DNA of 64,000 bases, taken from positions 32,001-96,000 of IMG/VR virus record IMGVR_UViG_3300031813_000003; one strand, 5' to 3'. Of the stretch, positions 36-35,165 are shown piece after piece; within the stretch, counting starts at the first letter, position 1, and every line of letters starts with the position of its first letter. Below the pieces are notes generated by a model that was given only the letters and a program-made list of their open reading frames with translations, did no database searches and was not told where the DNA came from. The translations under genes were made by a program, and so were the position numbers. This DNA comes from a virus. Taxonomy: Duplodnaviria > Caudoviricetes.

Positions 36-1451
36 ATGGCCGATTCAGTATTACTTGAAAAATGGACTGAACTAATTGACACAGATAAAGCACCTGCTGT
101 TCAATCCAGAGAAAACATGGCACAACTTCTTGAGAACCAAGAAGGGTATCTAAATGAAACAGCTACTGCACAAGCTGACGTTGCTCAGTATACACCAATT
201 TTGGTTCCAGCAGTTCGCCGTATCTTCCCTAACCTACTAGCAAATGAGATCGTAGGTGTACAACCTCTTAAACAACCTACTGGTTATGTATATGCACTAC
301 GTTACCTATATGGTGATGGCGCAGGTATCAACGCAGTTGACCGTGGAACCTTTAACCGTGACTTGACCGGTGCCCCTGCTGTATTCATGACTGTTGGTGT
401 TCTTTTTGCCGACATTACTCAAACTCCAACCGTATCTGGTTCAGTTGTGTTCACTTCTGGCGCACCTTCTGCTACTGGTACTGTTAACTACACTGAAGCA
501 GGACGTTGCTTAGTAACTTTTGCATCTGCTTCTGGCGCACAACTAGCAGTTACTCCAGGTGTTTCCGCAATCGGAGCAGGTATTAATACTACTGTTGTTG
601 CTGGTTTCGCAAACGAAGTTGGATACTCTCTAATCTTCAAAAACTGGACCGGTCCAATGACCACAGCAGTTGGTGAAACACTTGGTGCTTCAATCAAGAA
701 TATGCAGCTAAAGATTGAACGTGCTCAAGTACAAGTTCAGACCAGACGTTTGAAAGCTGAGTACACCCTTGAAATGGCGCAAGACTTAAAGAACATTCAT
801 GGACTAGATGCTGAGAAAGAACTTATCAACATCATGGAATATGAAATTGGTGCAGAACTTGACCGTGAATTAGTTGACCTAATTAACGCAAAAGCAACTG
901 TAACACCAGCATGGAACTACGGTTCTGTGAACGTTGCTAACGGAACAGCTGACGGTCGTTGGGAAGCTGAAAAAATCCGTACCCTCTACAATCGTCTTCT
1001 TCGTGAAGCAAATCAAGTAGCTCTAACTACTCGTAGAGGTTCCGCTAACTTCATTATTGCATCTTCTAACGTATGTGCTGCACTTGAAACTCTTTCTGGT
1101 TTCCTTTACGCAGCTGTGCCAGGAACTGTAAAACCAACCATTGGTGTTGCTAAAGTTGGCACTCTAGATGCTCGTTTCACTGTATACATGGATACATTTG
1201 CATACACTGACTACATCACACTTGGATACAAAGGCGCAGGATACGACAACGGTATCATCTACTGCCCATATATTCCACTACAAATGCAGAAAGTTATTGA
1301 CCCTGTTACTTTCCAGCCTAAGATTGGTTTCATGACTCGTGATGCAATTGCTGGAACTCTATATGGAACTCAGAACTACTACAGAACTTTTGCAGTTAAC
1401 TTCGGTTCCTCTTCCTTCGGTGGTGGTTATACCCTTGGAGTAACTTGGTAA
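36..1451 (+). CDS. gp23: Major capsid protein (T4 gp23 family)
   Basis: LLENQ, VRRIFPNLLANEIVGVQP..PTG, RRLKAEYTLEMAQDLKNIHGLDAE.EL, YCPYIPL, FQPKIGFMTR motifs; YLNE|T prohead-protease-type site; AAGGAG RBS. Confidence 0.98.
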   Translation: MADSVLLEKWTELIDTDKAPAVQSRENMAQLLENQEGYLNETATAQADVAQYTPILVPAVRRIFPNLLANEIVGVQPLKQPTGYVYALRYLYGDGAGINAVDRGTFNRDLTGAPAVFMTVGVLFADITQTPTVSGSVVFTSGAPSATGTVNYTEAGRCLVTFASASGAQLAVTPGVSAIGAGINTTVVAGFANEVGYSLIFKNWTGPMTTAVGETLGASIKNMQLKIERAQVQVQTRRLKAEYTLEMAQDLKNIHGLDAEKELINIMEYEIGAELDRELVDLINAKATVTPAWNYGSVNVANGTADGRWEAEKIRTLYNRLLREANQVALTTRRGSANFIIASSNVCAALETLSGFLYAAVPGTVKPTIGVAKVGTLDARFTVYMDTFAYTDYITLGYKGAGYDNGIIYCPYIPLQMQKVIDPVTFQPKIGFMTRDAIAGTLYGTQNYYRTFAVNFGSSSFGGGYTLGVTW

Positions 1452-6253: not shown

Positions 6254-7000
6254 ATGAAAATAATTCCATATGTTTTTGTACATGATCAAAATATTGTATT
6301 AGCCTATGAAAGAACTAGAAAACTTTCTAAAATATTTAATGAATACTACTATGTTTTTCTTGGTAATAATCCAGTATATGAAATAAAAAATAAAAAGAAT
6401 GTTATTGTAGCTAGACAACTAGAATACAATATTGAAGAATATCCCAAACTTGTCACCTTCACAGGGTGGTATGCTCTCCATATGAATAAACTATTAAAAT
6501 CAGATTACTCTATGTTTCTTGAATATGATGTTGTATTACATCCTAGATTTAGTTCAATAGTACTAGATTCTATTAAACATTCAAAAGAAAAAGATGTGTT
6601 CTCATTTATCCCTGTAGCAAAAGACTTCCTATTCTATGAGTACCTTCTTCCTATTATAGATAATAAAGAAAATTTTTCATCTGATAGAGAAATCTATATA
6701 GATAATGGGGGTAAAGAACAATGGATGGGAAGCTCAAATTCAATTTGGAAAACTGAAGTTGTTATAGATTTTATAGAATGGTTTATGTTGCGTTGTGGAG
6801 CTATACTAAACTATGACACTATTGGTCATATAGTTGAACGTGCATTAACAATGTATTGTATTGAAAATAGGATCAATTATAGATTTATATCTGGAGTTCT
6901 TCAGCATGAATATCTTGATTCTCATCAGACACAATCTGTTTATAATGGTGGGATTCAAAAAAACTATAAAGACCATATTAATAGGTTGGCACAGTCATGA
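6254..7000 (+). CDS. Putative glycosyltransferase (GT-A-like)
   Basis: FLEYDV (DxD-like), GHIVER, H...DSH; first gene of a coupled glycan operon. Confidence 0.45.
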   Translation: MKIIPYVFVHDQNIVLAYERTRKLSKIFNEYYYVFLGNNPVYEIKNKKNVIVARQLEYNIEEYPKLVTFTGWYALHMNKLLKSDYSMFLEYDVVLHPRFSSIVLDSIKHSKEKDVFSFIPVAKDFLFYEYLLPIIDNKENFSSDREIYIDNGGKEQWMGSSNSIWKTEVVIDFIEWFMLRCGAILNYDTIGHIVERALTMYCIENRINYRFISGVLQHEYLDSHQTQSVYNGGIQKNYKDHINRLAQS

Positions 7001-7740
7001 TATATAATAGTTATAATAAATTTCACCTAGGAGATAACACATACCATTTGCATCTTCTTAGAAAATTATGTGATGTAAATGGAGGAATATATAATCATTA
7101 TGTACTTGATCAGTATATTCCAGAACTAAGGCAACAGATCATAGGATATGAAAATAAGATCAATTTGTATGGAATTGATAGTTGCCCTATATTTGCACAA
7201 AATAGTTGGATAGCAACTGATGGATTTTTTTATAATGACCCTGAGTTCTTTAATTATAACGAAATGTATATCAGATTTTTTGATTACTACTGTTCACGAA
7301 TAGGAGTACCAAATCCTTGTACAGATGTAGTATTTGAATATGAAGAAATAAAACTAAGAAATGATCTCATGAGTGGTGGGTATGACATTTTACTAGTAAA
7401 CTCCATTGCACATTCAGGACAATTTGATTGCGGAGATCATGAAATGTTGAATTTGGCAAATCAACTATCAAGTAAATATTCAATAATTACCACACAAAAA
7501 TTGGGTGATTATCCTTGTACTAGAGATTTGAAATATAGTCTAGTTGATATTGCTGCATTGGCAATAAATTGTAAATATCTAGTTTCTATATTTACCTCAC
7601 CTTTTGTTATGTCTATCAATAAATGGAGCAATTTTGAAAAAGTATTTACACTAGATAAATTTAATTCATATAGACTACCAAACTTTTTTAGAGTACAATC
7701 TCCACAGAATTTTGATATTATAACTAGGGAACTTTTATGA
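6997..7740 (+). CDS. Putative glycosyltransferase (GT-B, heptosyltransferase-like)
   Basis: N-terminal HLGD, YDILLVNS..HSGQ, SLVDIAAL..CKYLVSIFTSP. Confidence 0.45.
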   Translation: MIYNSYNKFHLGDNTYHLHLLRKLCDVNGGIYNHYVLDQYIPELRQQIIGYENKINLYGIDSCPIFAQNSWIATDGFFYNDPEFFNYNEMYIRFFDYYCSRIGVPNPCTDVVFEYEEIKLRNDLMSGGYDILLVNSIAHSGQFDCGDHEMLNLANQLSSKYSIITTQKLGDYPCTRDLKYSLVDIAALAINCKYLVSIFTSPFVMSINKWSNFEKVFTLDKFNSYRLPNFFRVQSPQNFDIITRELL

Positions 7741-8525
7741 CATTCAAATTGAATATAGAAAATCAACATAGAGGATTTTTCTCTCTTATGTCTGATGTAT
7801 ATTATTTCGAAAAGAAACATCTCAAACCGGAAGATGAAATATATGTTAGTGTAACTGGATCATTATACCATCAACATAATATGTTTGATTTATATTTTGA
7901 TCAAACACCAATACAACACTATAACCAGATTCATACTGTAAGGAATCCTGGAGAATGTGGAATTGAATATCTTGTCACTTCAAGTAACTATTATACAGAA
8001 GAAGGAGCAAATATTTTACGTGAATTAGTTCCTATTATACAGCATAGATTTATAGTCAAGAAACACATTCAAGAAAAGATTGATGATTTTAAAATCACTA
8101 ACTTCAAAGGAAATATATTTGGTATTCAGAAACGTGGGACTGATATGTATACAATAGGACATGGACAAACAGCAAGTGAAATGAGATCACTTGACACTTA
8201 TAAAAGAATCATAGAAGACAATTTGACTAAATATGATAAATGTTTTCTTATGACTGATGAACAGTTTACAGTTGATATTTTAAAGAATACTTTTGGTGAT
8301 AAAATTTGTAGCTATGATTCTTTGAGAAGTCATACTGATAGAAGTGTACATTTTCAGTTTCAACATAATCCTAGGATAGGAGAAGATGTTTTAATTGAGA
8401 CAATACTTTTAGGTAGTTGTGATAAATTATTCGCAACATTATCTAATATACCTGTATTTGCAATAGCATACAATAATAATTTTAACTATGAATTTATTGA
8501 CATAGGAAGGAAGTATATACATTGA
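7737..8525 (+). CDS. NodZ/FUT8-like fucosyltransferase
   Basis: RGFFS; GIQKRGTD (HxRxTD-like), FLMTDE, GEDVLIETILLGSCD....SN. Confidence 0.7.
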   Translation: MTFKLNIENQHRGFFSLMSDVYYFEKKHLKPEDEIYVSVTGSLYHQHNMFDLYFDQTPIQHYNQIHTVRNPGECGIEYLVTSSNYYTEEGANILRELVPIIQHRFIVKKHIQEKIDDFKITNFKGNIFGIQKRGTDMYTIGHGQTASEMRSLDTYKRIIEDNLTKYDKCFLMTDEQFTVDILKNTFGDKICSYDSLRSHTDRSVHFQFQHNPRIGEDVLIETILLGSCDKLFATLSNIPVFAIAYNNNFNYEFIDIGRKYIH

Positions 8526-12040: not shown

Positions 12041-12048
12041 TATAAATA
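12041..12048 (+). promoter_or_regulatory. T4-type late promoter for the lysis and internal-protein operon
   Basis: Exact TATAAATA just after a terminator, 27 nt before the holin ATG; gp55 is encoded in the window. Confidence 0.75.
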
Positions 12049-12377: not shown

Positions 12378-13016
12378 ATGAAAATTTTAGTAATATTGAT
12401 CTTACTATTACTAATCCCATTTTCTGTTCCTGGGGATGATATGTTAGTACGATCCAAACCTTACATAGTTATTCTAAAATCAATTTTCAATCAATATTGG
12501 CCTAATGTAGATTGTAAGTATATAGCAGCTGGTCAGGTTGAACAGGAGTCTGATTGGAATCCCAAAGCACATCTTCATACTAAGAGAGAAGATGGTTATG
12601 GGTTGACACAGATAACAGTTACTCCTAGGTTCAATAACTTCAAAAATGCTGTTGATCTAAAACCACTGAAGTCATGGCACTGGAAGAATGATAAGTATAA
12701 TCCAACATATCAATTGACTTTTCTTGTCCTAGAAGACCGATCAAATTTCAATATGGTAGGGCATCTTCTGAAAGGTGATGCAGAGATATGGAAAGGTGTT
12801 CTTGTATCATATAACGCAGGATATGGAAGGCTGGAACGTAGGCATCAATACGCAGTTGCAAAAGGATTACCTCATGACTGCTGGACAGGTGGATTAGAAC
12901 TAGCACATGGAAGAACTGAAGATACAAAACTTTATGGGGAAACTCTCTGGAAGACAGTGAATGCTTACCCTGTATTAATATTCAAGAAAGCTGAAAAATA
13001 CAAAGGTGAATTATGA
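12378..13016 (+). CDS. Lytic transglycosylase (SLT) endolysin with N-terminal signal/SAR
   Basis: GQVEQES.WNP.A, GYGLTQIT, SYNAGYG. Confidence 0.85.
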   Translation: MKILVILILLLLIPFSVPGDDMLVRSKPYIVILKSIFNQYWPNVDCKYIAAGQVEQESDWNPKAHLHTKREDGYGLTQITVTPRFNNFKNAVDLKPLKSWHWKNDKYNPTYQLTFLVLEDRSNFNMVGHLLKGDAEIWKGVLVSYNAGYGRLERRHQYAVAKGLPHDCWTGGLELAHGRTEDTKLYGETLWKTVNAYPVLIFKKAEKYKGEL

Positions 13017-13369
13017 GATACATGTCATTCAATCAATATCTAACAGAAATGTCAACACATATTGGAGATGTTGAATTTAGATTCTCTAATCACTTTTCTG
13101 ATAGGGTGAAAGAACGCTCAGTCATTACCCCTGATGATTTGAATACTTTATTAGCTAATATTAGAAAGAAGTTAACTGATCTACCGGCTGTTGGTGAATT
13201 CCTTTTCTATTCTAAGAGACTTGCCCAAGGGGTTATTGCAGCATGGGACTCATTTAGAAATCGAATAAGTCTCATTACTTTCCTGCCAAAAAATAAACAT
13301 TTCGCAAAGCCTGGGACTGAAACTGTGGTTCTTGAATCTATTACATATCAAATAATCTATATAGACTAA
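13013..13369 (+). CDS. Putative head-internal protein, BECR/RelE-like nuclease fold
   Basis: Leader MSFNQYLTE|; FSNHFSDRVKER...ISLITF. Confidence 0.45.
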   Translation: MRYMSFNQYLTEMSTHIGDVEFRFSNHFSDRVKERSVITPDDLNTLLANIRKKLTDLPAVGEFLFYSKRLAQGVIAAWDSFRNRISLITFLPKNKHFAKPGTETVVLESITYQIIYID

Positions 13370-13377
13370 GGACTCCA

Positions 13378-13923
13378 ATGTTATCCTTTAAACAGTTTAT
13401 AACTGAAGATGCTGATGTAGATACTCAACTCAAAAAACTAGGGCTTAGAAGGGGTGGTATGGGGTTTCCAGTGGGTAAAGTGATTGGTGGTTGTGTGTAC
13501 CTTCACAAACAATATGAGAATGAACTTCCACAAGATTTCTTAGCCAATGCCAAATCAAAACTCCCTAAAGGATTTCACTACGACACATTGAAGTTCGATC
13601 CTAAATCAAAGTCAATCACATTCTTCAGGGTAGATGATTTCGATACTAATCATGAACCAATCATTGATGAATATGTTACTGTTAAGCCTAATTCTGACGG
13701 TGTTAAAGTTGTTACTGATGGAAACACAGTTTATCACCATAAATGGCAATGGGTAGGCCCTGACTATAAAGGGTTTGATGTTGAGAAGAACAAAGCTAGA
13801 AGTGCAAAATGGTATGGGTTGACGGATGCTGATATCGGCCAGGAGAAATATAAATGTAAGATTGGTAAGAATAGTTTCTGGCAACAGCATGTTGTTGATA
13901 AATTTCTAAAGGATGATGAATGA
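13378..13923 (+). CDS. Putative head-internal protein resembling the accessory domain of the phosphorothioation-associated methyltransferase
   Basis: Leader MLSFKQFITE|; GKVIGGCVYLHK, ITFF..DDFDT..EP, VYHHKWQWV..DY.GFDV. Confidence 0.5.
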   Translation: MLSFKQFITEDADVDTQLKKLGLRRGGMGFPVGKVIGGCVYLHKQYENELPQDFLANAKSKLPKGFHYDTLKFDPKSKSITFFRVDDFDTNHEPIIDEYVTVKPNSDGVKVVTDGNTVYHHKWQWVGPDYKGFDVEKNKARSAKWYGLTDADIGQEKYKCKIGKNSFWQQHVVDKFLKDDE

Positions 13924-14600
13924 AACTAAAATCATTTACACAATTCATAACTGAGGCTATAACATCACCTACTGACAACCCAAAATTCACAAAATGGTTT
14001 GGTAGTTCTAAAGTTGTAGATGATCAGGGCAATCCATTGGTTGTATATCATGGGACTGCTAAAGAGTTTACTGCTTTTATGTCAGATGATAATCAGAAAA
14101 CTTTTGGTTCTAGATATAGTGGAATGAAAGGATCATTCTTTACAAGTCGCCCAGGTGAAGCAAATCACTATGCAGAACAATCAAGAATCTGGAAAGGTGG
14201 AAATGAACAAGTTCTCCCTGTGTTTCTTAAAATAGAAAATCCTTATATCAGAAAAGGTGGTAAATTCCCAACTCAATGGTTTGATAGTAATTGGGAAGAT
14301 ATTCAAAGAAAGTGTGAATCAAGAGGATATGATGGAATTATTATAACAGGCGGAACTCCTGAGATACCTAGGACTATTTACATCACATTTGAACCTATCC
14401 AAGTGAAATCTGCTATTGGTAATAATGGAAACTTTGATCCATCTAATCCACATATTACCGAAGATAAAAAGATAAATACTATTAATGAATCTTCTAACGA
14501 TTGTAAATATTTTCGTAAAGATACAGAAACCTGTTCTATCAAGAAAAACAAGACATGTAAATATATAGATGACCAAGGAGATTGTAAAGACTATGAGTAA
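13920..14600 (+). CDS. Putative head-internal ADP-ribosyltransferase (ART-PolyVal-like)
   Basis: Leader MKLKSFTQFITE|; FTKWFGSSKVVD..GNPLVVYHGT, FFT, VLPVFLKIENP, GYDGII, QVKSAIGNNGNFD. Confidence 0.75.
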   Translation: MKLKSFTQFITEAITSPTDNPKFTKWFGSSKVVDDQGNPLVVYHGTAKEFTAFMSDDNQKTFGSRYSGMKGSFFTSRPGEANHYAEQSRIWKGGNEQVLPVFLKIENPYIRKGGKFPTQWFDSNWEDIQRKCESRGYDGIIITGGTPEIPRTIYITFEPIQVKSAIGNNGNFDPSNPHITEDKKINTINESSNDCKYFRKDTETCSIKKNKTCKYIDDQGDCKDYE

Positions 14601-15135
14601 GTTTGAAAAATATCTATTAAGTGAAATGGCAACTCCAGATGAACAAGCAATTGCCCAAGCAACTTCAAGAAATACAGGTGCAGTTGGAGCCAAAGCTATT
14701 GTTCCTAGGATGGTAAGACAATATGCAAATAAGAATAAAGATGTAATCCTAGACTTTGGTGCAGGAAAAGCAGCTGCACATACATTGGCTCTTAGAGAAG
14801 AAGGATATAATGTTACAGCATATGACTTTTCACAATCAGAGTTTCATGATCCTACTGCGTTGAATAAGAAATACACTCTAGTATTTGCTTCTAATGTACT
14901 AAACGTCCAAGGGTCAGAAGATATGCTTATGAATGATACTTTAAGACCTATATATAAGGTTCTTCGTCCAGGTGGTAGATTCATTGGTAATCTTCCTTCT
15001 AGCCCTCTTAAAGGTATGTATAAGGGTCTTACTTATAAAGAGTGTGTTGCTCTATTACAGAGTAAACTTGAAGAAGTATTCTCAAGTGTAAAGAGATTAG
15101 AAGGATCAACTCCTGTATGGATGTGTATCAAATGA
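14593..15135 (+). CDS. Putative head-internal SAM-dependent methyltransferase
   Basis: Leader MSKFEKYLLSE|; ILDFGAGK, VTAYDF, VFASNVLNV, VLRPGG. Confidence 0.8.
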   Translation: MSKFEKYLLSEMATPDEQAIAQATSRNTGAVGAKAIVPRMVRQYANKNKDVILDFGAGKAAAHTLALREEGYNVTAYDFSQSEFHDPTALNKKYTLVFASNVLNVQGSEDMLMNDTLRPIYKVLRPGGRFIGNLPSSPLKGMYKGLTYKECVALLQSKLEEVFSSVKRLEGSTPVWMCIK

Positions 15136-15279
15136 GATGCCCAACATGTGGATATAAGAAAACTTCAGTTAGAATGTCTCCTGGGTTCACTCATTTAGTA
15201 ATAGAAGAATGCCCTGATTGTGATACTGTGTATATGATGGATAAAAACATAACAAAAATTTTATTTCAAAGGGATGATC

Positions 15280-15540
15280 ATGACAAATATTCTAAACACA
15301 ATTGAAAAACTATCAGAAGCATATGAAACTTTTGATATTGAAGTTAATGGGAAACTGAAACAGGGTGTTCATAAGAACTATCTTAAAGTTCTAGATGAAA
15401 AAGGTGTTAAATATAAAATTATACCTAAAGATGCCTCTATTCCCAAATCAAAAACTCAACCAGTATCTTCAAAAACTTGGAAATGTAGACGTTGCGGTAA
15501 AATGGTTTCTGATAAAAATCCATGTAGATGTTATGATTAG
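15280..15540 (+). CDS. Small Zn-ribbon protein, possibly head-internal
   Basis: IEKLSE|A leader-like end; CRRC...CRC. Confidence 0.4.
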   Translation: MTNILNTIEKLSEAYETFDIEVNGKLKQGVHKNYLKVLDEKGVKYKIIPKDASIPKSKTQPVSSKTWKCRRCGKMVSDKNPCRCYD

Positions 15541-15575: not shown

Positions 15576-15609
15576 AAAATGCACCAGACCAAAATCTGGT
15601 GCATTTTTT
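15576..15609 (+). terminator. Intrinsic terminator closing the lysis/internal-protein operon
   Basis: AAAATGCACCAGA-CCAAAA-TCTGGTGCATTTTTT. Confidence 0.85.
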
Positions 15610-15851
15610 GTGTCATAAATAAATATAAAAACTAACAGGAGAAACGAAATGGCAATAGAATTTTTAGAAGTAGATATCAATTATAAAACTCTATCTGATG
15701 CTTTGAATAAAAGTAAAGCTAATGAAATTGTTATAATTACATCTGATAATAAATGTTTACTGATCAATGGAACTGCAAAACCATATTCAGGTATCACAGC
15801 ACAAATGGCTAGGAAACTAGCTAAATAAAATACTACAACTGGAGAAGTAAA

Positions 15852-18798: not shown

Positions 18799-21486
18799 AT
18801 GGCTATTAAAACACCGGCAGAAAAATATAAGCAATTAGTCAAGATATTCATAAGAAGAATGTCTAAAGACGTTGATAACATTAAACACAGTGTTGCTGGT
18901 GTATATGCTAGGTCTGCTATATCTATTCTCATGGCATCTGATTTAGAAACAATCAAAGACACAAAGAAAAATATGGACCTGATAGTTTCTGAGTACAAAA
19001 GATATAAATCTTCTGAAGTAACATCAACTAAAGATATTGTTAATAACTCAAAATATCTAAATCAAGAATATAAAAGAATAAATCTTGAGCTATCTGCTAC
19101 TAAAGCTAAAAGAAGAAAAATAAGATTGAAAGCTGAACTAGCTGATATAAAACAAAAGAGAATTGATAATGTAAATTCAATAAGGGATATTAAAAATAAA
19201 TTTAAAATATCAGATGATATTATCAATAAAGTATCAGGATTTTTAAAATCACAAAATGGTGTTAAGATAAATGATAATTATATTAGACTAACTGATATTC
19301 AAAATATTGACTCTGTATCAAGAAGAAAAGATTTACTAAAAAAAGGAGCTTTGGGTGGATTAGCAGCATTAACAAAAAGCTCTATTCCTTTGTTAATACC
19401 AAGAGGAATTAAAGGTATTAAAGAAGGATGGAAAAATTTTAATAACAATAGTAAATCAGGGAAAGCATCTTTACTCGGTGCTGGTTTATTAGGAGGACTA
19501 GGAATTTTAGCAGGAAGCCCTGCTGCTATGATGGGGGCTGCATATCTAAAAGGTAAATCAAATGAGCATCTTCAAAAGAAAAATGATTTTTCTGAACAGA
19601 TAAAAAGAATAAATTCTAACATTTTAAGGGAACAGTTAAATCACAAACGTGATCCTTCAAGGACTGCTAGTAAAACAAATTCATTTGAAGAAGCTTTAAT
19701 TCAATCTCTTGAGAAATCACATCCAGGGATCAGAAAAGAATTACGTCCAGCACTTCGTGGTCATAAACATGGAGGAACATTTCAAACAATTGGGCCTACT
19801 AGAATAGGAAATCATGATATAGCTGGAGAAGCAGGACCAGAAACTATAAAGATTATACCAAAAGGAAAAGACCCTGTAGTTACTAGCATTGAGAAGACAA
19901 ATAGTATTCTTAATGATATGAGACATTCACAAGAAGAATCAGCTATTAAGGTAGGTCTTGCTAATAAAGATAAAAACGAAAAGTTAGATGTAAAAGCTAC
20001 ATCAAATGTTTTTGGTTCTGCTATCACTAAAAATACAAAAGGCGAGACTGGTCTTTTAACTACACTTCTTGAAGCTGAATTTTTAACACCAATATTGGCA
20101 CCGTTAATTACTAGTGTAGCAAATGTAGCAAAACCATTATTATTAAAAAGTGTTAGTATGGCAGGGCGAGGATTACTTAGAGGAGCAGGTATTGGTGCTG
20201 CTGGATCAGCCGCTTATTTTGGAGTTACTGATGCTATTAAAGCGGTTAAAACAGGTAAATCAACATCAAATGATTATGCTAGAAAATTAGGATTTGTTAA
20301 ATCTAAAGAAGATATTGATAGTGGTACTGATTCAAGATCAAAATGGAATCCTTTATCCTGGGCTGGAAGAGGTATAGATACTTTGGCGGAAGGTGCTGCT
20401 AAATTATCTGTTATTATCACTGAAGATAAATCAAAAACAACTGCTGATTTATTAACAAAGGCTGATGAAAATAAAACTCTAATGGAGAAGATGAATTCCA
20501 TTTGGAGTGATCCAAGCAAATCACCACTTCAAAAATTAGGTGGAATGTTTTCATCAACAATGAATTCTATTGGTAGTGGAATTAAAAATATATTTCCACA
20601 TAAACCAGCAGAATTTGATGTATCAAAACTAAAGAATGGTGTAGGTTCTGTTGCGGAAAAATATGAATCAGGTGGAAGAGGAGCAGGAACTATATCATCA
20701 GGGTCAGGAGATTTTGGAGGTAAGTCATATGGAACTTTTCAATTATCATCAAAATCAGGAACTCTAAATTCATTTTTAAAACAATCACCATATGCTAAAG
20801 AATTTAATGGACTTCAGCCAGGATCAACTGAATTTGATTCTAAATGGAAAGATTTAGCTAAGAATGATCCTGGATTTGGCAAAGCTCAACACGATTATAT
20901 AGCACAAACTCATGCTGCGCCACAGATGGATAAGTTAAAAAAATTAGGTTTAGATACTAATAGTAAAGCATTACAAGAAATGGCTTTCTCTACTGGAACT
21001 CAATATGGTCCTGATTCTAACATTATTGAAGAAGCTATCAAAGCATCAGGGAAAGACCCATCCAAACTATCAACTAAAGAAGTTATTGATATAGTTCAGG
21101 ATTACAAAGCATCTACTGTTGGTAGTAAGTTTAAATCATCTAGCCCTAGTGTTCAAGCAGGAGTTGCACGTAGACATGGTGTTGATGAAAAATCTGACTT
21201 AATGCAGATAGCAGATTATGAAGCTAAAGTTAAACCAAAAAATGTACAAGAAGGATCAATTAAAAATATTAAAGGTAATGCTACTAATGGATCAGAAGGT
21301 AGTAATCTTACAAACAAAGAGACTGCAACTGATGCTTTTGCTAATGCTAATGCAGCTAAAGGAACTCAGGCAGCTATAAATAATACCGTTCTAGGAGGGT
21401 CAACACCCACTCCTCCATCACCAACACCTAATATTTTTACAGGAGATCAAATAAGTTATGCTACTAGATTAGCAAAATCTTATTAA
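18799..21486 (+). CDS. Tape measure/hub protein (gp29-like) with C-terminal lysozyme-like domain
   Basis: 895 aa, helical Gly/Ala/Lys-rich, AGEAGPE motif, AEKYESGGRG.GTIS.G.GD.GGKSYGTFQL; position between gp26/51 and gp48. Confidence 0.75.
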   Translation: MAIKTPAEKYKQLVKIFIRRMSKDVDNIKHSVAGVYARSAISILMASDLETIKDTKKNMDLIVSEYKRYKSSEVTSTKDIVNNSKYLNQEYKRINLELSATKAKRRKIRLKAELADIKQKRIDNVNSIRDIKNKFKISDDIINKVSGFLKSQNGVKINDNYIRLTDIQNIDSVSRRKDLLKKGALGGLAALTKSSIPLLIPRGIKGIKEGWKNFNNNSKSGKASLLGAGLLGGLGILAGSPAAMMGAAYLKGKSNEHLQKKNDFSEQIKRINSNILREQLNHKRDPSRTASKTNSFEEALIQSLEKSHPGIRKELRPALRGHKHGGTFQTIGPTRIGNHDIAGEAGPETIKIIPKGKDPVVTSIEKTNSILNDMRHSQEESAIKVGLANKDKNEKLDVKATSNVFGSAITKNTKGETGLLTTLLEAEFLTPILAPLITSVANVAKPLLLKSVSMAGRGLLRGAGIGAAGSAAYFGVTDAIKAVKTGKSTSNDYARKLGFVKSKEDIDSGTDSRSKWNPLSWAGRGIDTLAEGAAKLSVIITEDKSKTTADLLTKADENKTLMEKMNSIWSDPSKSPLQKLGGMFSSTMNSIGSGIKNIFPHKPAEFDVSKLKNGVGSVAEKYESGGRGAGTISSGSGDFGGKSYGTFQLSSKSGTLNSFLKQSPYAKEFNGLQPGSTEFDSKWKDLAKNDPGFGKAQHDYIAQTHAAPQMDKLKKLGLDTNSKALQEMAFSTGTQYGPDSNIIEEAIKASGKDPSKLSTKEVIDIVQDYKASTVGSKFKSSSPSVQAGVARRHGVDEKSDLMQIADYEAKVKPKNVQEGSIKNIKGNATNGSEGSNLTNKETATDAFANANAAKGTQAAINNTVLGGSTPTPPSPTPNIFTGDQISYATRLAKSY

Positions 21487-21495
21487 GATATAATT

Positions 21496-22200
21496 ATGGG
21501 TATACTTCAATTTCCATCAAAATTTGCTAATAATATGCCTTGGGTACATTTGCAAGCATTTACATATGCATTCCCAACTCCTGATACTACTATTTTAAGT
21601 AAGATAAATCCTAAAACAGCAACAGGGGATATTATTGCTCTATATATGCCTGGGGAATTTACTGAATCTGCTGAAGCTTCCTGGGGATTAGAAGAAACAA
21701 TGAGATCAAGTGGGAATTGGGGAGCATGGGCAACAGCAAATGCAGCTGCTGCTCTTGATGCTACCGGTGCTGGTGCTAAAGTACTTGCTACAGCAAAAGC
21801 AACTGCAGGTAGATTGCCATTTCCAACAGATGTTGCAATATTTCAGTATATAAGTCCTTTAAGTTTTTCTTTGAACTTTAATATGATTCCTTTTGATAAA
21901 GAAGAAGGTGATGCTATTGTATCTATATGTCAAACATTTAAGAAATTACAAGCACCTAAAGTAGATGGTTCACTTGAGAATGTTTTATTAAAATTTCCAG
22001 CAATATGGGATATACAATTTGTTGGTATTAATGGTGTAGCATATAATATAGATAGCAAATATGAAAATATGGCATTAACTCATTGCTCAGTATCTTATAT
22101 ATCAGGGACTGAAGGTGCATCAGTGTATGCAGATAAAAATCCTACCCAGGTTAAGTTAAGTTTAACTTTTCAAGGTATACAAAAATTCTTTTTACAGTAA
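21496..22200 (+). CDS. gp48: Baseplate tail-tube cap (gp48-like)
   Basis: LQFP, IALYMP, FSLNFNMIP...EEG.AIV.IC..FK, ALTHCSVSY, PTQVKLSLTF. Confidence 0.7.
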   Translation: MGILQFPSKFANNMPWVHLQAFTYAFPTPDTTILSKINPKTATGDIIALYMPGEFTESAEASWGLEETMRSSGNWGAWATANAAAALDATGAGAKVLATAKATAGRLPFPTDVAIFQYISPLSFSLNFNMIPFDKEEGDAIVSICQTFKKLQAPKVDGSLENVLLKFPAIWDIQFVGINGVAYNIDSKYENMALTHCSVSYISGTEGASVYADKNPTQVKLSLTFQGIQKFFLQ

Positions 22201-34694: not shown

Positions 34695-35165
34695 ATGGAA
34701 ATAAATGAAACAGAAGTGCCAGAAAAGAAGAAAAGAGTTTTTCGTCAAAAAGATTCCCCCCATTATGTTGATAATAAATTGTTTGCTGCCGAACTTACAA
34801 CATGGATTGTATCAAATAAAGATAATGGCAAGAGGATTAATTGGACAGAAATGCCTAGGTACGTTGCTGAATGCCTGATGAAGATCGTAGACCACTTTGG
34901 GTTACAATCTTGCTGGCGCTCATATACTTACTTAGATGAGATGAAATCTGAAGCTATTATAAATCTGGTTAAGGGTATCCATAACTACAACATCAACTTC
35001 TCCCCTAATGCTTTTGCATATGCATCAGAAATCGTAAGAAAATCCTTTCTGTTTGTTCTTGAAAAAGAAAAGGCCCAGGCAGCAATCCGCAATGAAACTG
35101 TTAGTCGTAGTTCAATCTACAATTACAACAATATCAATCTCCATGATGAAGAGGAACACGAATGA
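34695..35165 (+). CDS. gp55: Late-transcription sigma factor
   Basis: HYVDNK.F, YVAECLMKI, W.SYTYLDEM.SEA, NAFAY.S.I...SF...LEKEK. Confidence 0.9.
   Translation: MEINETEVPEKKKRVFRQKDSPHYVDNKLFAAELTTWIVSNKDNGKRINWTEMPRYVAECLMKIVDHFGLQSCWRSYTYLDEMKSEAIINLVKGIHNYNINFSPNAFAYASEIVRKSFLFVLEKEKAQAAIRNETVSRSSIYNYNNINLHDEEEHE

Follow-up and report, generated by a model that had tools for sequence, protein, structure and literature searches.

The question raised by the locus described here is why four consecutive genes, whose small protein products are unrelated to each other, should all begin with the same short N-terminal leader. These genes (positions 13022–15135) are located in a 64,000-nucleotide stretch of DNA, hereafter the window, which comprises bases 32001–96000 of the genome of an uncultivated phage (IMG/VR record IMGVR_UViG_3300031813_000003) represented by a single contig of 215,974 bp (~216 kb). 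The phage is a distant relative of T4, its capsid protein being 32% identical to T4 gp23 by BLASTP (elsewhere the figure is about 32–35%) and at most about 36% identical to the capsid proteins of deposited phages. The capsid-targeting sequence (CTS) of T4 is the textbook route for loading proteins for injection, and to our knowledge it has mostly been discussed for the T-even coliphages and their small internal proteins. By analogy with that system, the four genes in the window and at least five more elsewhere in the genome probably encode capsid-internal, ejected proteins of this distant T4-like phage. The evidence for this reading, the points that weigh against it, and its rivals are discussed below.

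The four proteins, termed cargos 1–4 in order of position, open with the pattern aromatic-x-x-aromatic-[I/L]-x-Glu, viz. MSFNQYLTE (13022), MLSFKQFITE (13378), MKLKSFTQFITE (13920), and MSKFEKYLLSE (14593); in the frame of cargo 1, an upstream ATG at 13013 would add the residues MRY. The preliminary description of this stretch had reported a leader pattern shared by four consecutive unrelated proteins, and the open reading frames (ORFs) and leaders are as it described them, but the observation was understated, as further tagged genes lie outside its view. A second tagged cluster of four genes is present at genome positions 19590–22157 (MSFKTFLKE, MKLLSFTQFLNE, MKLKSFRQHLIE, and MKLKSFKRFLTE), and a lone tagged gene on the minus strand at genome position 105741 starts with MKILNFKQFINE. 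The pattern is not due to chance. In its strict form, [SN]F.Q[FY][LI].E, it is found five times among the 431,944 residues of the six-frame translation, and all five occurrences lie 0–3 residues past an ATG that opens an ORF of 114–266 amino acids (aa). A looser N-terminal pattern gives 12 matches in the whole genome vs. 1 for a reversed-motif control, and at internal positions this looser pattern shows no excess (18 forward vs. 27 reversed).

When nine of the leaders are compared, 59 of the 169 identical-residue pairs (35%) use different codons, and the DNA upstream of the leaders is ~32% identical, which corresponds to background. The differing codons and the unconserved upstream DNA argue for selection on the leader at the protein level. 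The leader is retained in four mutually unrelated cargo families, among homologues that are 37–79% identical, and in AlphaFold2 (AF2) models it is predicted, with low confidence, to be a helix that lies apart from the folded domain. The leaders in the window end in LTE, ITE, ITE, and LSE, and those of the homologues in INE, ILE, IAE, ICE, LLE, and similar triplets.

These features are those of the T4 internal-protein CTS (Mullaney and Black, 1996, as reviewed in PMC9026906 and PMC3012670). In T4 (sequences read from NC_000866; a slash marks the cut), ipII and ipIII begin with MKTYQEFIAE/A, ipI with MKTFKEF...ITE/A, Alt with MELITE/, and gp24 with MAKINELLRE/. Of the T4 CTS residues, it is mainly 4 and 7 that matter for targeting and 8 and 10 for processing (PMC9026906), and the conserved positions of the present leader (aromatic, aromatic, I/L, Glu) are these same four functionally mapped positions, with F at −7 and F or Y at −4 relative to the predicted cut in cargos 1–3. 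The T4 proteins IPI, IPII, and IPIII likewise carry an N-terminal propeptide (10–19 residues) in which the aromatics stand three apart and the end is [I/L]-x-Glu, and in both phages a diverse, fast-changing cargo lies behind a constant tag in a genome with a gp21-type protease. The arrangement is also shared, in that T4 ipII and ipIII lie beside the endolysin gene e (T4 65416–66997) and the tagged block here directly follows an endolysin-like gene (window 12378–13923). Unlike the T4 internal proteins, which are small and basic, the cargos described here are recognizable enzymes of the polyvalent-protein toolkit; their tag favors S-F-x-Q-F over T-Y-Q-E-F, and they are known from genes alone.

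A gp21-type prohead protease of the Peptidase_S77 family is encoded in the head module just upstream of the window (locus L001), in which the genes are arranged in the order portal, Peptidase_S77 protease, scaffold, and capsid. This protease shares 29% identity with T4 gp21, in the alignment with which its GE.HP and GVS.RG motifs (His and Ser) line up, and its N-terminus carries an L-I-E site, as does that of T4 gp21. The capsid protein itself reads ...QEGYLNE/TATAQ, with a predicted maturation cut after Glu41 (nt 147–158), and in the BLASTP alignment GYLNE-T lies opposite SFLTE-A of T4 gp23; the leader-type site that had earlier been pointed out in this protein aligns with the T4 gp23 cut site, and cleavage at this position is a prediction from sequence. 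Head proteases of the same family also cut after Glu in the packaged and ejected inner-body proteins of phiKZ and SPN3US, where the motif differs (A/S/G-x-E), the propeptides often exceed 100 residues, and processing is not uniform (PMC5694885). The propeptides here are T4-like in length and sequence, unlike those of phiKZ and SPN3US.

Cargo 3 is matched by the ART-PolyVal family PF18760 over profile positions 1–140 of 140 (E 2e-26; 93.7 bits vs. a cut-off of 31.2 bits), and its assignment as an ART-PolyVal ADP-ribosyltransferase (ART) within the Tox-ART-HYD2-like clade, putatively active, holds at the level of sequence. The active site of this H-Y-D clade consists of a His in strand 1, a Tyr in strand 2, and an Asp in strand 5 (PMC5512222), and His44 and Asp138 of cargo 3 are invariant in 23 sequences. 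The same leader type is carried by at least 10 of 119 small homologues in the family, while others begin directly at the domain. A precedent is provided by T4 Alt, an ART with a short propeptide (MELITE/) that is made late, cut by gp21, packaged, and injected, and that modifies host proteins. Unlike Alt, which belongs to the R-S-E (Alt/VIP2) clade, cargo 3 belongs to the H-Y-D ART-PolyVal clade (PMC5512222), and a tblastn search with T4 Alt found no homologue in this genome. As a separate observation, the Cys-rich tail of cargo 3 (window 14502–14600) reads CKYFRKDTETC...C...DCKDYE, and a cargo-2 homologue of a different sample (P0014) terminates in a nearly identical one; the tail could be another module that is portable or, as in T4 Alt, a site for processing at the C-terminus.

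Cargo 4 scores above the cut-offs of two methyltransferase families (Methyltransf_23, 29.3 bits vs. 27; Methyltransf_11, 23.1 vs. 21.2), and by these profile matches its assignment as a class I S-adenosylmethionine (SAM) methyltransferase holds. Strict leaders are found in 11 representatives of its family, and 37 of the 150 representatives are at least 600 aa long (up to 4,518 aa). A hidden Markov model (HMM) of the cargo-2 domain matches 17 of these 150 representatives directly beside the methyltransferase domain, and because of this fusion cargo 2 is read as an accessory domain of the cargo-4 family. The domain also weakly matches the C-terminal region of TIGR04096 (E 1e-3), and searches of Pfam, NCBIfam, and PDB sequences with cargo 2 gave nothing usable. 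Its AF2 model is confident (pLDDT 87); a fold search of the kind that had been suggested for the cargos found no match in the PDB by Foldseek or VIA-align (best Z 3.9), and a protein atlas gave only TM scores of 0.40–0.43. Among 15 homologues that are 37–71% identical, 14 retain the leader. A match in Dickeya phage JA33, which seemingly aligned from residue 1, was rejected, as it has no leader; the cargo-2 homologue in the KVP40-like Vibrio phage nt-1 is also without a leader, and a neighboring gene there starts with MIEFLTE. In a 205-kb relative (L006:8001-9263), the cargo-2 gene lacks an ATG at its start, and a 255-aa ORF on the minus strand overlaps its 3' end; by eye, this ORF looks like a GIY-YIG homing endonuclease.

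For cargo 1, searches of Pfam, NCBIfam, and PDB sequences gave nothing usable, PHROG 17629 being the sole weak sequence match, and four members of its family showed no match in Pfam, PBECR included, at E values up to 10. Its homologues (46–54% identity) retain the leaders MKTFKQYINE, MQIKKFKQYILE, and MKRFKSFIAE. In the BECR fold of the phage RNases (PBECR; Iyer et al., 2017), 4–5 strands accompany an N-terminal helix that bears a His, and a late strand bears a Ser or Thr. The AF2 model (pLDDT 72) has a helix at residues 23–31 with the invariant His24 and a strand at residues 81–87 with the invariant Thr86, and its top folds in the PDB are almost all RelE, HigB, ParE, YoeB, T4 RegB, and CdiA-CT, at Z scores of only 5–6. 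A RelE/BECR-like fold, and with it a putative RNase activity, is plausible for this modeled protein but not proven. The preliminary description had named a BECR-type nuclease, an ART-PolyVal ADP-ribosyltransferase, a SAM methyltransferase, and the accessory domain of the latter as the cargos. The last three are borne out by the profile matches above, whereas the nuclease stands in part: the fold similarities and the conserved His and Thr agree with it, and the Pfam PBECR match is lacking. The coordinates of the cargos and of the other features discussed here are summarized in Table 1.

Table 1. Coordinates and supporting evidence for the genes and signals discussed in the text (window positions unless a locus is given)
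Feature	Position	Strand	Leader or context	Evidence
gp23-type major capsid protein	36–1451	+		PHROG 138, E 2e-98
T4-type late-promoter-like box TATAAATA	12041–12048	+	28 nt before the holin-like gene, the first of the operon	
Holin-like membrane protein, 99 aa	12076–12375	+	three hydrophobic stretches	sequence only
SLT-type lytic transglycosylase, endolysin-like, 212 aa	12378–13016	+	hydrophobic N-terminus	Pfam SLT, PHROG 669
Cargo 1, RelE/BECR-like protein (putative RNase), 115 aa	13022–13369	+	leader 13022–13048	AF2 fold similarity, homologues
Cargo 2, predicted methyltransferase accessory domain, 181 aa	13378–13923	+	leader 13378–13407	domain HMM
Cargo 3, predicted ART-PolyVal with Cys-rich C-terminal tail, 226 aa	13920–14600	+	leader 13920–13955	PF18760
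Cargo 4, predicted class I SAM methyltransferase, 180 aa	14593–15135	+	leader 14593–14625	Pfam
Zinc-ribbon protein, 62 aa	15117–15305	+	within the operon, no leader	sequence
88-aa protein	15274–15540	+	IEKLSE N-terminus, not accepted as CTS	L-S-E only
Intrinsic terminator, hairpin then UUUUUU	15576–15607	+	closes the operon	dG −20.4 kcal/mol, z −7.5
gp55-like late sigma factor homologue	34695–35165	+		tblastn of T4 gp55
Peptidase_S77 (gp21-type) prohead protease	L001:18465-19154		next to the scaffold and capsid genes	PF03420, E 4e-23; PHROG 207, E 6e-55

The cargo domains are also known in another format. ART-PolyVal was defined from giant polyvalent proteins (Iyer et al., 2017, PMC5512222), and proteins of this kind (1,600–4,500 aa) have in common with the present locus the ART-PolyVal domain, a BECR-like putative RNase, and the methyltransferase with its accessory domain, as well as the same predicted role as effectors that are delivered with the DNA (PMC5512222). 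Unlike the polyvalent proteins, which unite at least two unrelated effector domains in a single chain and among which the cargos are therefore not counted, each protein in the window consists of one domain (115–226 aa), is encoded by a separate gene, and has its own address tag, which is predicted to be cleavable. Solo versions of the domains near structural genes are noted in PMC5512222, in the consulted passages of which a CTS-type tag on them goes unmentioned. In IMG/VR contigs, from which the locus contexts of the best protein matches were taken, the cargo-2 domain occurs in two main forms, either as a protein of 140–190 aa with a CTS-like leader or internal to ORFs of 1,600–3,900 aa; a few mid-sized ORFs of about 340–560 aa belong to neither form.

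The distribution of these forms follows that of the prohead protease. The S77 family PF03420 was found in 5 of 10 leader-type viral records, including both of the complete ones (the present genome is not counted), and in none of 10 polyvalent-type or leaderless records, four of which are at least 90% complete. Two complete relatives with S77 (G001 and G002) contain 11 and 7 tagged ORFs, respectively, one of them starting with MKTYKEFIVE, whereas a genome-wide scan of three complete S77-less phages revealed no convincing tagged ORF. Only four of the tagged families of this phage recur in G001 and G002, which indicates a fast turnover of the cargo, and the loci of two relatives that are syntenic to the operon (L003 and L006) hold other tagged genes; such swapped cargo had been among the proposed checks on related genomes. 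The earlier suggestions that these domains are usually fused in giant polyvalent proteins, and that this phage has split the toolkit into separately addressed modules, both agree with these results, as the tagged solo forms go with S77 phages and the fused forms do not. A more general proposal, which at present seems to us evenly balanced between true and false, is that tagging and fusion are interchangeable ways of delivering several effectors with the DNA, the format following the presence of a gp21-type protease and core.

In our favored reading, which we consider likely, the tagged proteins would be made late from a nine-gene operon that extends from the TATAAATA box to the terminator. The leader of 9–12 residues would act like the T4 CTS, its two aromatics docking the protein to the prohead scaffolding core, and its [I/L]-x-Glu end would be cut by the gp21-type (Peptidase_S77) protease that would also trim the capsid protein at YLNE/T. 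The mature enzymes would remain in the head until they pass, together with the DNA, into the cell. The injected set would then include a RelE/BECR-like putative RNase, an H-Y-D-clade ART, and a SAM methyltransferase along with the accessory domain that a gene of its own encodes, and these enzymes could hit host targets ahead of any phage gene expression. In the lineage with the S77 protease, every such effector would have a gene to itself and bear a separate tag, and from one relative to another the set of cargos changes fast. The late timing, docking, retention, and host targets are steps that we infer.

Several points weigh against this reading. Packaging, cleavage, and ejection are argued by analogy with T4, and giant phages do not always conserve the processing of internal proteins (PMC5694885). 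The leader of cargo 4 has one extra residue, which places its aromatics at −8 and −5 (the consensus spacing is found in the L003 orthologue, MSKFEKYLAE), and cargo 3 has a Phe at the position where the Tyr of its clade is expected, its relatives having Y, F, H, or W at this position (before the invariant Phe74). The Z scores of 5–6 for cargo 1 lie within the range that unrelated folds can reach. The co-occurrence of leaders with S77 (one-sided hypergeometric probability 252/15504 = 0.016) was calculated from 20 records, many of them fragments and with the kinship among them ignored, and one of these (L034) was counted as leader-type by virtue of a neighboring gene. Lastly, of the late promoter that the preliminary description had placed at 12041, the box itself is present, 28 nt upstream of the first gene, but the count of TATAAATA within the window is not above that in shuffled sequences, so that the call of a late promoter is drawn from its position only.

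An alternative that accepts both targeting and cleavage is that the proteins are assembly components of the prohead core, comparable to gp67 and gp68, which are degraded or expelled before DNA packaging. Similar N-terminal sites are indeed present in T4 gp67 (MEGLIE/), gp68, and gp22, all of which are removed (PMC9026906), and the retention of the cargos in the mature head is something we only infer. We nevertheless regard this alternative as unlikely, since what the leaders precede are enzyme domains (of ART, methyltransferase, and RNase-like type), these also occur in polyvalent proteins that are predicted to be injected (PMC5512222), and the cargos turn over fast among relatives, unlike structural core proteins; furthermore, the nearest precedents, viz. 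Alt and the internal proteins of T4, do stay in the head and are ejected (PMC9026906). The shared N-terminus could also be a tag for a partner other than the capsid, such as a modifying enzyme, a chaperone, or an enhancer of translation initiation, and a radical-SAM enzyme is in fact encoded elsewhere in the genome. This is quite improbable in view of the agreement of the tag with the T4 CTS at four mapped positions, its possession of the same site type as the capsid's own cut, and its co-occurrence with the S77 protease, the one enzyme for which co-occurrence was examined, and the varied codons make a signal at the mRNA level unlikely. That the repeat is a DNA-level feature, i.e., a recombination cassette boundary or a recent duplication translated by accident, is very improbable and largely refuted, for although the genes are adjacent, the MKLKSF... 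leaders at genome positions 20751, 21405, and 21489 are close in DNA, and one 31-aa mini-ORF carries the leader only, the codon differences and background-level upstream identity noted above speak against it, as do homologues drawn from other metagenomes, which keep the leader at only 37–54% identity in the body.

The locus is best read as an instance of the T4 internal-protein/Alt principle that operates, in a distant lineage, on domains which are delivered by other phages in the form of polyvalent fusions. This mechanism was known; what is added here is the identity of the cargos, the separation of the methyltransferase from its accessory domain, and a dichotomy, leader or fusion, that goes with S77. 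No paper joining CTS tags to polyvalent-protein domains was found, although, as subscription journals were thinly covered, this is a weak sign of novelty. In this phage, whose identity to T4 is about one third, recognizable enzymes bear the T4 tag, which is kept among environmental homologues numbering in the hundreds, and thus the leader offers a means of listing, from sequence only, the probable injected effectors of uncultivated T4-like phages, now linked to the polyvalent toolkit. Such short natural tags are also candidates for loading cargo into T4-type capsids. If tagging and fusion are truly interchangeable, a leader profile could tell from genome sequence which proteins are injected throughout the T4 superfamily, uncultivated phages of lakes and the sea among them, and expose many new host-takeover and anti-defense enzymes.

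The four tagged genes abut or overlap by 4–8 nt within the nine-gene run, which starts 28 nt after the TATAAATA box, ends at the hairpin and U-run, and is flanked by lysis and tail-tube genes. A megablast search with the block against 50,697 phage records gave no match. The first gene of the run encodes the holin-like protein, which has no match in Pfam or PHROG, and the endolysin-like protein matches Pfam SLT (E 8e-5, above the cut-off) and the endolysin family PHROG 669 (E 1e-11); an endolysin gene in the unit and a terminator at 15576 had both been called at first reading, and both calls are upheld. The zinc-ribbon gene also follows the methyltransferase gene in L003, and in L006 the zinc ribbon is preceded by an internal leader-like ESKFELFLE. 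On the plus strand of the whole genome, 12 of the 26 copies of TATAAATA are intergenic, as compared with ~10% of the genome. For CATAAATA, 8 of the 9 copies genome-wide are intergenic (1 is coding) vs. ~10% intergenic DNA, and its copies sit 20–50 nt ahead of gene starts, including those of tagged cluster 1 and of the gene that follows the terminator (window 15614–15621); it is probably a variant of the late-promoter box. The combined form [T/C]ATAAATA is enriched in intergenic DNA; it precedes cluster 1 and the scaffold gene, and likewise this operon and the gene that comes next. A tblastn search of the genome with T4 gp55 identified a homologue of this late sigma factor (25% identity over 115 aa, E 2e-5), and the position of the box, the tight operon, and the gp55-like gene fit T4-type late transcription without proving it.

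A number of other sequences resemble the leader to varying degrees. For the 88-aa protein that starts at 15274 (...NTIEKLSE), the fifth and weaker leader that had been proposed was rejected as a CTS, as it has only L-x-E, without both aromatic positions, and a tblastn search with this protein against two complete relatives found no relative. The weak short forms MKLNE and MINE (genome 22154 and 22623) and MSKFLKFLEE (genome 195957) were neither accepted nor rejected. Outside the window, at genome positions 6818–7759, a 313-aa protein that appears DNA-ligase-like by eye (KIDG motif) starts with MGFIEFEDFKQTLTE (with DFKQTLTE), a partial match that may reflect either chance or a packaged ligase. 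In the second tagged cluster, a 270-aa protein (L001:7936-8748; genome 19936–20748) and its two relatives in G001 show by eye a Gly-rich loop and VAxK-like and DYG motifs; this kinase-like reading is unsupported by any database search, and neither this protein nor the tagged 184-aa protein gave anything usable in searches of Pfam, NCBIfam, and PDB sequences. In the same region, a mini-ORF of 31 aa (L001:9405-9500; genome 21405–21500), which consists of a full leader, MKLKSFRQMLSE, and 19 further residues, overlaps the start of the next tagged gene and seems to be what remains of a cargo that was lost or exchanged.

Two further variants were observed in other contigs. A second leader flavor, [I/L]-R-x-[Y/W/L]-I-x-[I/L]-V-E, precedes ART-PolyVal and cargo-2 domains in P0040, P0051, P0099, P0105, and L010, possibly serving as the address tag in a different lineage of phages. 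In relatives (L003:986-1432, L006:10426-10794, and P0145), a conserved N-terminal module of ~65–75 aa lies ahead of an internal leader-like KESKFEQYLLE and has a methyltransferase or zinc ribbon, or else a small protein, behind it; this module could represent an extended pro-region or an upstream gene that became fused.

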